A stretch of 51,946 bases of DNA from a virus (taxonomy: Duplodnaviria > Heunggongvirae > Uroviricota > Caudoviricetes), in IMG/VR virus record IMGVR_UViG_3300044259_000172; one strand, given 5' to 3'. Below the pieces are notes generated by a model, which was not told the origin of the DNA, searched no databases, and saw nothing but the letters and a program-made list of their open reading frames with translations. Positions 23,677 through 28,044 of this stretch are shown piece by piece. The number at the start of each line of letters is the position of its first letter. Within the stretch, counting starts at the first letter, position 1. Made by a program: the position numbers and the translations under genes.

Positions 23677-23752
23677 TGGTGGGTCCTGAAAGATTCAAAC
23701 TTTCGTCTTACCGGTTAAGAGCCGGATGTAATAGTCACTATACGAAAGACCC
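23677..23752 (-). tRNA. tRNA-Lys(CTT)
   Basis: Cloverleaf, loop CT-CTT-AA, encoded CCA. Confidence 0.85.
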
Positions 23753-24456: not shown

Positions 24457-24464
24457 AATTTATA

Positions 24465-24558
24465 TGGAGGAAGAAGTTGGTCTCGATCCAAAGACGTAAG
24501 TCGCTTTACGCCCGATCAGTTTAGCAAACTGTCTTGAGTCCTACTCAATTCATCTTCC
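24465..24558 (-). tRNA. tRNA-Ser(GCT)
   Basis: Loop TTGCTAA, long variable arm, CCA. Confidence 0.8.
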
Positions 24559-25037: not shown

Positions 25038-25141
25038 TAAAGTGATTAGCCTTCCAGGCCGGATTCGAACCGACATACTCCAATTACTCGATTAACGACG
25101 CATTAGAAGTGCGTTGAGATACTGGAAGGCTAATCACTTTA
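25038..25141 (-). ncRNA. D-armless Arg(TCT) tRNA-like RNA inside a perfect 20-bp inverted repeat
   Basis: TAAAGTGATTAGCCTTCCAG repeat arms at 25038-25057 and 25122-25141; ACGCA-CTTCTAA-TGCGT; GTCGG-TTCGAAT-CCGGC. Confidence 0.6.
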
Positions 25142-26950: not shown

Positions 26951-27045
26951 TGGCCGGAAGCTGGTAGTGTCGATCTCCAAACGTGGTACTAGCACGTTCC
27001 ATCAGATTTCAAGTCTGAGTCAAGGGCCGCCTTGATTAACTTCCG
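26951..27045 (-). tRNA. tRNA-Ser(TGA)
   Basis: TCAGA-CTTGAAA-TCTGA, long variable arm, G73-CCA. Confidence 0.85.
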
Positions 27046-27060
27046 TAAACTTTGTTAATT

Positions 27061-27137
27061 TGGTAGGAACAATTGGATTTACACCAATACCTTCTGGTTT
27101 ACAACGCCAGATGAACTGTACCTTATTCGATATTCCT
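27061..27137 (-). tRNA. Atypical tRNA with a 9-nt anticodon loop (CGTTGTAAA; Thr-TGT or Tyr-GTA register)
   Basis: TCTGG/CCAGA stem, AGGAATA/TGTTCCT acceptor, CCA. Confidence 0.6.
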
Positions 27138-27384: not shown

Positions 27385-27476
27385 TGGTACCTGTAGTCGG
27401 ATTCGAACCGACTCGAGAACGCTAATCTGGCGCTGAAAGACTTATAAGATCTCCCTGTGTACCTACACCTACAGGC
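27385..27476 (-). tRNA. Non-canonical class II tRNA with anticodon TAT (Ile codon ATA)
   Basis: Loop CTTATAA, G8, 4-bp D stem with AGGT loop, up to 7-bp anticodon stem, long V arm, A73-CCA. Confidence 0.7.
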
Positions 27477-27648: not shown

Positions 27649-27723
27649 TGGCTGCTGAGATAGGAGTTGCACCTATAATCACCGCGTTAACGGCAGCTGC
27701 TTTACTAATTAGCACACTCAGCA
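27649..27723 (-). tRNA. Asn-bodied tRNA with an out-of-register anticodon loop (CGTTAAC)
   Basis: T1-A72 and G73 as in tRNA-Asn; GTT falls at positions 33-35 in the best stem. Confidence 0.55.
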
Positions 27724-27731
27724 AAATTGAA

Positions 27732-27809
27732 TGGTACGCCTGACCGGATTTGAACCGGCGAATGGTCTCCTTGAAAGGGAGGTGGCTTAGACCGCTTGCC
27801 AACAGACGT
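27732..27809 (-). tRNA. tRNA-Glu(TTC)
   Basis: CCTCC-CTTTCAA-GGAGA, CCA. Confidence 0.9.
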
Positions 27810-27814
27810 ATAAA

Positions 27815-27904
27815 TGGTGGGAGATGGGCTGAATCGAACACCTTGCCGCAAGGACGTGGGCTACAACCACGCGCCAGGACCACCTAGCCTTACTTGCATC
27901 TCCC
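27815..27904 (-). tRNA. Sec-like-fold tRNA with anticodon GTA (Tyr)
   Basis: 8-bp acceptor GGGAGATG/CATCTCCC, 6-bp D stem with TGGT loop, 6-bp anticodon stem, long V arm, A73-CCA. Confidence 0.65.
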
Positions 27905-27969: not shown

Positions 27970-28044
27970 TGGTACGTATAAATGGATTTGAACCATTGAC
28001 CACTACCTTATCGGGGTAGCGCTCTACCACTGAGCTATATACGT
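27970..28044 (-). tRNA. tRNA-Ile(GAT)
   Basis: CTACC-CCGATAA-GGTAG, CCA. Confidence 0.85.

Follow-up and report, generated by a model that had tools for sequence, protein, structure and literature searches.

The 51,946-nucleotide stretch of viral DNA that we analyzed (the window) carries on its minus strand, at positions 27815-27904, a 90-nt non-canonical tRNA gene with a GUA anticodon and an encoded CCA end, here called tRNA(GUA). There is hardly any doubt that the gene is real and under selection, and its sequence features indicate that the product is probably a translating tRNA-Tyr that would be charged by the tyrosyl-tRNA synthetase (TyrRS) of the host. The gene belongs to a family with 83 distinct homologues on phage and metagenome contigs and one more in the cultured Sinorhizobium phage Phosso.

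The virus record, of which the window forms bases 20334-72279, is complete at 154,347 bp and has direct terminal repeats. Because its genes include those for a T4-type major capsid protein, portal, large terminase, tail sheath, and UvsW helicase, we consider the carrier to be a T4-like phage. DNA of this phage occurs in sediment metagenome runs, and no RNA run is listed among those that contain it. The phage genes read normally under code 11. All tRNA genes except one are located on the minus strand between approximately positions 23677 and 30806, where ARAGORN makes 27 tRNA calls (with one more elsewhere in the genome) and Rfam adds two. The tRNA(GUA) gene lies on the upstream side of a tRNA-Glu gene (27732-27809) on the same strand, from which it is separated by a gap of only 5 nt. 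A tRNA-Ile gene (27970-28044) is found 65 nt upstream of tRNA(GUA) in the same-strand array.

The acceptor stem is formed by nucleotides 1-8 (GGGAGAUG, 27897-27904) and 79-86 (27819-27826), and all eight of its pairs covary in the family, with the eighth being GC in 73, AU in 9, and UA in 1 of the sequences in an 83-sequence alignment. An extra loop, or linker, of 8 nt (CAAGUAAG, nucleotides 9-16, 27889-27896) that ends in UAAG joins the acceptor stem to the D stem, and this loop is 7-8 nt long in 83 of 83 homologues. The D arm (nucleotides 17-32, 27873-27888) consists of a 6-bp stem (17-22 with 27-32), each pair of which shows compensatory changes, and a 4-nt UGGU loop. The anticodon arm (nucleotides 33-51, 27854-27872) likewise has a 6-bp stem (33-38 with 46-51), capped by the 7-nt loop UUGUAGC with the GUA anticodon at 27862-27864. 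Among the 83 homologues, double changes occur in five of these six pairs, and the first pair is G-U, A-U, or G-C. The window copy carries U32 and G37, a minority variant present in 8 of the 83 homologues, whereas Tyr tRNAs normally carry A37.

The variable region (nucleotides 52-62, 27843-27853) includes a 2-bp CC/GG stem, a 4-nt UUGC loop, and a CAA spacer. Across the family this arm has a stem of 2-4 bp, a loop of 3-5 nt, and a spacer made of an invariant CA and one further base. At 11 nt and with 2 bp the window copy is the shortest in the family, and the long variable arm described in the initial annotation was therefore an overstatement. In the T arm (nucleotides 63-78, 27827-27842), nucleotides 63-66 pair with 74, 75, 77, and 78 around the loop UUCGAUU, leaving G76 (position 27829) bulged on the 3′ strand. 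The bulged base is G in 49 family members, A in 27, and U in 6, and it is absent in one member, which has a plain 8/4 arrangement of acceptor and T stems. The acceptor/T branch thus comprises 12 bp (8/4 plus the bulge), which is the canonical stack length. The discriminator A73 (nucleotide 87) and the CCA end complete the gene (nucleotides 87-90, 27815-27818), and ACCA is present in 13 of 13 viral homologues recovered by a search in which it was not fixed. The stem lengths, the UGGU loop, and the 8-nt linker read from the letters alone at the outset are all correct.

Several other folds were considered and rejected. A canonical 7/5 reading leaves the T stem only 58% paired across the family, compared with 99% for the 4-bp T stem with its bulge, which bears out the initial proposal of a bulged or short T stem. 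In the minimum-energy fold of the single sequence, the linker segment GUAAG pairs with the variable-region segment CUUGC, an interaction that is absent in most relatives; complementarity between the two regions equals that obtained with shuffled linkers. Pseudoknots of the linker with the D, T, or anticodon loops were likewise not above shuffles.

Standard gene finders do not report this RNA. The stretch 27815-27904 is called neither by ARAGORN at default settings nor, at the gathering score, by the Rfam tRNA model, and the only Rfam match is to tRNA-Sec (RF01852) with 21.3 bits and an E value of 0.04, relative to a gathering score of 47. The same holds for the family, as none of 86 copies is called by ARAGORN at default settings, and Rfam at gathering score, including tRNA-Sec, has no match at the position of the family member in the loci of 15 relatives.

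Homologues were collected with sequence patterns of differing stringency. An exact D-arm pattern identified four relatives on IMG/VR contigs, and 13 homologues came from a pattern in which only TAAGG, the D-loop core, and the anticodon were fixed. A further pattern, in which the anticodon, GGCA, the T loop, and a 12-nt 3′ tail were fixed and the linker and D arm were left free, added 49 loci. With two patterns that left the anticodon free, every true match carried GUA, and the remaining matches were not tRNA-like. A covariance model of the family (R1) scores its members at 77-107 bits (94.4 bits for the window copy) and everything else at no more than 46 bits. This model alone revealed an additional copy (L067:1897-1985) that the patterns had missed, again with a GUA anticodon. 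A near-identical relative that differs from the window copy only in the variable loop is found on soil contigs labelled metatranscriptomic but flagged as probably DNA.

Strong evidence for the structure model comes from the 83-sequence alignment, in which 98.4% of the cells assigned to pairs are paired, compared with 69% after shuffling and no more than 51% after sliding of the partners. Double changes are evident in 24 of the 27 base pairs among these distinct sequences, and RNAalifold, when run unaided, returns the identical 27 pairs. In addition, two single-stranded motifs are invariant and lack a conserved pairing partner: the UAAG that ends the linker and the CA that follows the variable arm. 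Each was left unfixed in one of two independent search sets, and UAAG is present in 83 of 83 homologues, including 47 from the search in which it was unfixed. The invariance of UAAG suggests a sequence-specific partner beyond plain translation.

The features that point to tyrosine are also consistent. The anticodon is preceded by U33, and GUA is present in all 83 homologues, including those from the anticodon-free searches. A73 is likewise common to all 83 and G1-C72 to 80 of them, whereas G73, G3-U70, and G-1 do not occur in any. The short stem and 3-nt spacer of the variable arm match the geometry of canonical bacterial tRNA-Tyr (3-bp stem, 3-nt spacer). The same geometry is seen in canonical phage tRNA-Tyr genes located beside some family members, and some of these canonical genes share the arm CCGGAAACGG. 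Canonical tRNA-Tyr genes are also the next-best matches of R1 in the phage loci (30-43 bits). In bacteria, next-best matches of 42-44 bits were obtained in 8 of 120 genomes, and the three examined are all tRNA-Tyr. BLAST searches with the 3′ two-thirds of family members gave weak matches to annotated tRNA-Tyr genes of unrelated phages. A test for serine identity (G73 with a long variable helix) failed, as A73 is invariant and the variable stem is 2-4 bp. GUA, G1-C72, A73, and a class-II variable arm had been put forward at the outset as determinants for bacterial TyrRS, and every test made at the sequence level agrees with that assignment.

The composition of the tRNA arrays provides further support. 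The ARAGORN calls in this genome cover 19 amino acids and lack only Tyr, as the initial annotation had supposed in describing the gene as the best Tyr candidate in an otherwise complete set; the arrays of two relatives (L003 and L074) show the same gap. Tyr is one of the amino acids that the ARAGORN calls leave uncovered in 11 of 11 related arrays with tRNAs for 16 or more of them. The preference of the initial annotation for function over decay is strengthened by both the covariation and this filling of gaps. However, a canonical 7/5 tRNA-Tyr(GUA) on the same strand, often directly adjacent, is present in 17 of 84 homologue flanks. There the unusual tRNA is not needed merely to decode Tyr codons and may have a second role.

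The family is widely distributed among large phages. Carriers include contigs of 20-480 kb, and three large carriers have T4-type capsid genes only 33-36% identical to that of the window phage, which indicates that the family spans distant T4-like and jumbo phages. The member in Sinorhizobium phage Phosso (PV764938.1, 422323-422413; 95.5 bits with R1) is unannotated in its record. BLAST of the window tRNA against GenBank phages yielded no match at an E value of 1 or less, and the Phosso copy was reached only with other family members as queries. Among 185,579 bacterial and archaeal species genomes, scanned only with the narrower D-arm pattern, there was one match, on a 9-kb contig of a metagenome-assembled genome that resembles a phage tRNA array. 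No R1 match at family level was obtained in 120 relatives of that genome.

Phosso carries a second GUA tRNA (PV764938.1, 421008-421090; L107:1685-1767), such that neither of its two GUA tRNAs is annotated in the record. Together with L096:1806-1889, this gene represents a distinct type that scores about 45 bits with R1. In this type the branch is 7/5, the linker is AAAA (4 nt), the D stem is compact with 5 bp, and the variable arm is short. For another Sinorhizobium jumbo phage, AP-J-162, 66 tRNA genes representing 19 amino acids were reported with tRNAscan-SE, with "no tRNA-Tyr" and with a CUA tRNA labelled Pyl (PMC11242549). An ARAGORN-called tRNA with the amber-reading anticodon CUA is also present in the array of a relative (L047:11606-11678, minus strand).

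The initial annotation likened the gene to both tRNA-Sec and allo-tRNAs. Of these, allo-tRNAs are the apt comparison, along with the so-called 8/4 extra-loop tRNAs. For tRNA-Sec the comparison is less suitable, because the branch has 12 rather than 13 bp and the anticodon, discriminator, and score all fail for tRNA-Sec. The family shares with tRNA-Sec (RF01852) the length of the acceptor stem (8 bp), of the D stem (6 bp) and its loop (4 nt), and of the anticodon stem (6 bp), but tRNA-Sec has a UCA anticodon, a 13-bp branch (8/5 or 9/4), and G73, whereas the window family has GUA, 12 bp, and A73. The minor 8/4 tRNA-Sec and selC* tRNA-Cys have a one-base bulge (A51a) in a 4-bp T stem, whereas the bulge in the window family is on the 3′ strand. 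In addition, selC* tRNA-Cys has the anticodon GCA, in contrast to the GUA and 8-nt linker found here. Canonical class-II tRNA-Tyr has in common with the family the GUA anticodon loop, A73, G1-C72, the short variable stem with 3-nt spacer, and the T loop, but differs in its 7/5 branch, its 2-nt linker, and its 3-4-bp D stem with a large loop, and it is found by ARAGORN and Rfam.

The closest match in body plan is to the 8/4 extra-loop tRNAs (Mukai 2017, PMC5389517; PMC7609411), in which an 8-bp acceptor stem is likewise combined with a 4-bp T stem and the acceptor and D stems are separated by an extra loop. According to the main text of Mukai 2017 (PMC5389517), these RNAs come from polycistrons in soil metatranscriptomes and were attributed to acidobacteria and toxin-antitoxin loci. 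As described there, they carry U73 with a GCU anticodon or G-1 with a GGU anticodon. The window family differs in its Tyr identity (A73, GUA), its invariant UAAG loop end, its bulge in the 3′ strand of the T stem, and its large T4-like and jumbo phage carriers. The same text reports that 8/4 tRNAs are functional in E. coli translation and that neither GlyRS nor ThrRS of E. coli charged the extra-loop example tested; it also describes 8/4 tRNA-Ser and tRNA-His in alpha-proteobacterial phages, and minor Sec and Cys tRNAs with a bulged 8/4 branch (PMC5389517). Those phage tRNA-Ser and tRNA-His genes likewise reside in tRNA clusters (Mukai 2017, main text). Together with allo-tRNAs they have in common with our family the 12-bp branch, a long D stem capped by a tetraloop, and an anticodon stem of 6 bp. 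In allo-tRNAs and 8/4 tRNA-Ser, however, the linker is 2 nt, G73 is present, and the variable helix is long, and the tRNA-His genes carry His marks, unlike the window family. In the literature searched, which included the main text of Mukai 2017, we found no natural Tyr tRNA with the 8/4 extra-loop shape, although engineered Tyr allo-tRNAs have been reported (PMC7590224).

Other unusual tRNAs are present in the same arrays. A tRNA-Ser(UGA) gene (26951-27045, minus strand) has an 8-bp acceptor stem, a D stem of 6 bp closed by the loop CGGC, and a T stem of 4 bp from whose 3′ strand an A is bulged out. This is the body plan of tRNA(GUA), but with a 2-nt linker, G73, and a 6-bp variable helix. 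Its score with the Rfam tRNA-Sec model is 37.7 bits, and ARAGORN reports it only at a lowered threshold. A close analogue with the anticodon CGA is found at L056:3268-3355. Two further class-II tRNAs (27385-27476 and 24461-24556, both minus strand) fold as 8/4; one has the anticodon UAU, and the other, a tRNA-Ser(GCU), contains a U-U mismatch within its acceptor stem. ARAGORN sets their anticodons at position 31, which indicates a misfit of both RNAs to its model. UAU tRNAs of equal length (90-94 nt) occur in four relatives (L011, L013, L040, and L052), and UAU is the predominant anticodon among allo-tRNAs as described in the main text of Mukai 2017. Two genes in relatives, L001:8010-8092 (anticodon UCC, U73, Gly-like) and L058:1911-1992 (anticodon UUU), have an extra loop of 9 nt and the D loop UGGU on an 8/4 body, demonstrating that the extra-loop design is not limited to Tyr.

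A class-I tRNA at 27064-27137 (minus strand; 46.2 bits with Rfam, no ARAGORN call) has an anticodon loop of 9 nt, CGUUGUAAA. Infernal places an insertion of GU behind position 32, such that the anticodon would be GUA, and the RNA has A1-U72 and A73. This gene is thus a second, weaker candidate for a GUA reader, and relatives of it were not found in the homologue loci examined. ARAGORN also reports a tRNA at 27649-27723 (minus strand) with the nominal anticodon UUA, a stop-codon reader, in the loop CGUUAAC with G at position 33. Finally, a tRNA-like RNA at 25050-25128 (minus strand; 32.2 bits with Rfam) has a 9-bp terminal stem, a normal T arm, and a hairpin with the loop CUUCUAA, but no clear D arm and no encoded CCA.

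Three other interpretations of tRNA(GUA) deserve consideration. That it is a selenocysteine-type tRNA or a decayed pseudogene might be argued from its sole Rfam match, to tRNA-Sec, and from its rejection by standard finders. The GUA anticodon, A73, the 12-bp branch, and a score far under 47 speak against the former and the 83 covarying homologues exclude the latter, such that we consider either to be almost certainly wrong. It is very unlikely that the RNA is charged with another amino acid, whether Ser, Leu, or His, and mistranslates or recodes Tyr codons. A73 might favor Leu, since it is also a Leu determinant in E. coli, and G34-U35 might favor His. Charging with Ser draws on the body plan common to the phage 8/4 tRNA-Ser in the same array and on allo-tRNAs with non-Ser anticodons, which are described as Ser-accepting in the main text of Mukai 2017 (PMC5389517). 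Yet the SerRS features G73 and a long variable helix are absent (the arm has 2-4 bp, compared with 6 bp in the sister tRNA-Ser), there is no G-1 or G3-U70, and the phage genes are normal under code 11.

A further possibility, which we regard as unlikely, is that the RNA is a tRNA-Tyr mimic whose main task is not decoding. If the host targets tRNA-Tyr with a nuclease or sensor, the RNA might serve as its decoy or sponge; alternatively, it might be the ligand of a UAAG-reading protein of the phage or host. The invariant, single-stranded, and unpartnered UAAG and CA motifs would fit such a role, as would the presence of canonical tRNA-Tyr next to the unusual gene in the 17 flanks noted above, where decoding alone would not require it. 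Moreover, tRNA-Tyr is a known target of defence systems: PtuAB of Retron-Eco7 and Septu cuts the variable loop of tRNA-Tyr, and phage variants of tRNA-Tyr neutralize this defence (PMC12673091, PMC11555353). A mimic is harder to reconcile with the strong selection that has retained all TyrRS identity marks, the CCA, and an anticodon loop of the normal 7 nt, and many arrays hold this gene as their only GUA tRNA, which fits decoding.

We therefore favor a translating tRNA-Tyr as the most probable function. Points against it are the minority U32 and G37 of the window copy, the canonical tRNA-Tyr genes beside some family members, the invariance of UAAG, and the failure of E. coli enzymes to charge the extra-loop example in Mukai 2017. 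We infer that tRNA(GUA) would be part of the array transcript, from which host RNase P and 3′ nucleases would release it. The phage genome contains no PF00579 match that would indicate a TyrRS gene, and thus a host enzyme must charge the RNA. A bacterial-type TyrRS could do so by reading A73, G1-C72, G34/U35, and the short class-II arm. EF-Tu would then deliver the charged tRNA to the ribosome, where UAU and UAC would be read, making it the Tyr member of the otherwise complete tRNA set of the phage.

The rebuilt body might additionally represent a structural escape form of tRNA-Tyr that evades tRNA-Tyr nucleases or the phage's own attack on host tRNAs, although we consider this idea speculative and somewhat improbable. 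The 8/4 bulged branch, the zipped D arm, and the UAAG loop would leave the tRNA acceptable to the TyrRS of the host, EF-Tu, and the ribosome. The nucleases evaded could be those of the PtuAB/Septu type, which cut the variable loop. UAAG and CA might take over from U8-A14 and G15-C48 and thereby restore the tertiary core that is lost with the zipped D arm. Phages that keep both a canonical and an unusual tRNA-Tyr could be hedging.

These genes constitute a class of Tyr tRNAs, present in large environmental phages and a cultured rhizobiophage, that ARAGORN and the Rfam models for tRNA and tRNA-Sec miss. Phage tRNA repertoires are consequently under-counted. Such genes probably explain the apparent absence of tRNA-Tyr in some large phages, and the "no tRNA-Tyr" of AP-J-162 (PMC11242549) may be an annotation artefact. 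If the favored function is correct, tRNA(GUA) would be the first natural Tyr member of the 8/4 extra-loop body plan, and bacterial TyrRS, EF-Tu, and the ribosome would tolerate this shape. Scaffolds of the 8/4 extra-loop type are sought as orthogonal tRNAs in synthetic biology. The function of the family can be tested in culture with phage Phosso and S. meliloti. Since tRNA-Tyr is a known target of defence, a re-shaped tRNA-Tyr is also a candidate for counter-defence, as either an escape form or a decoy.
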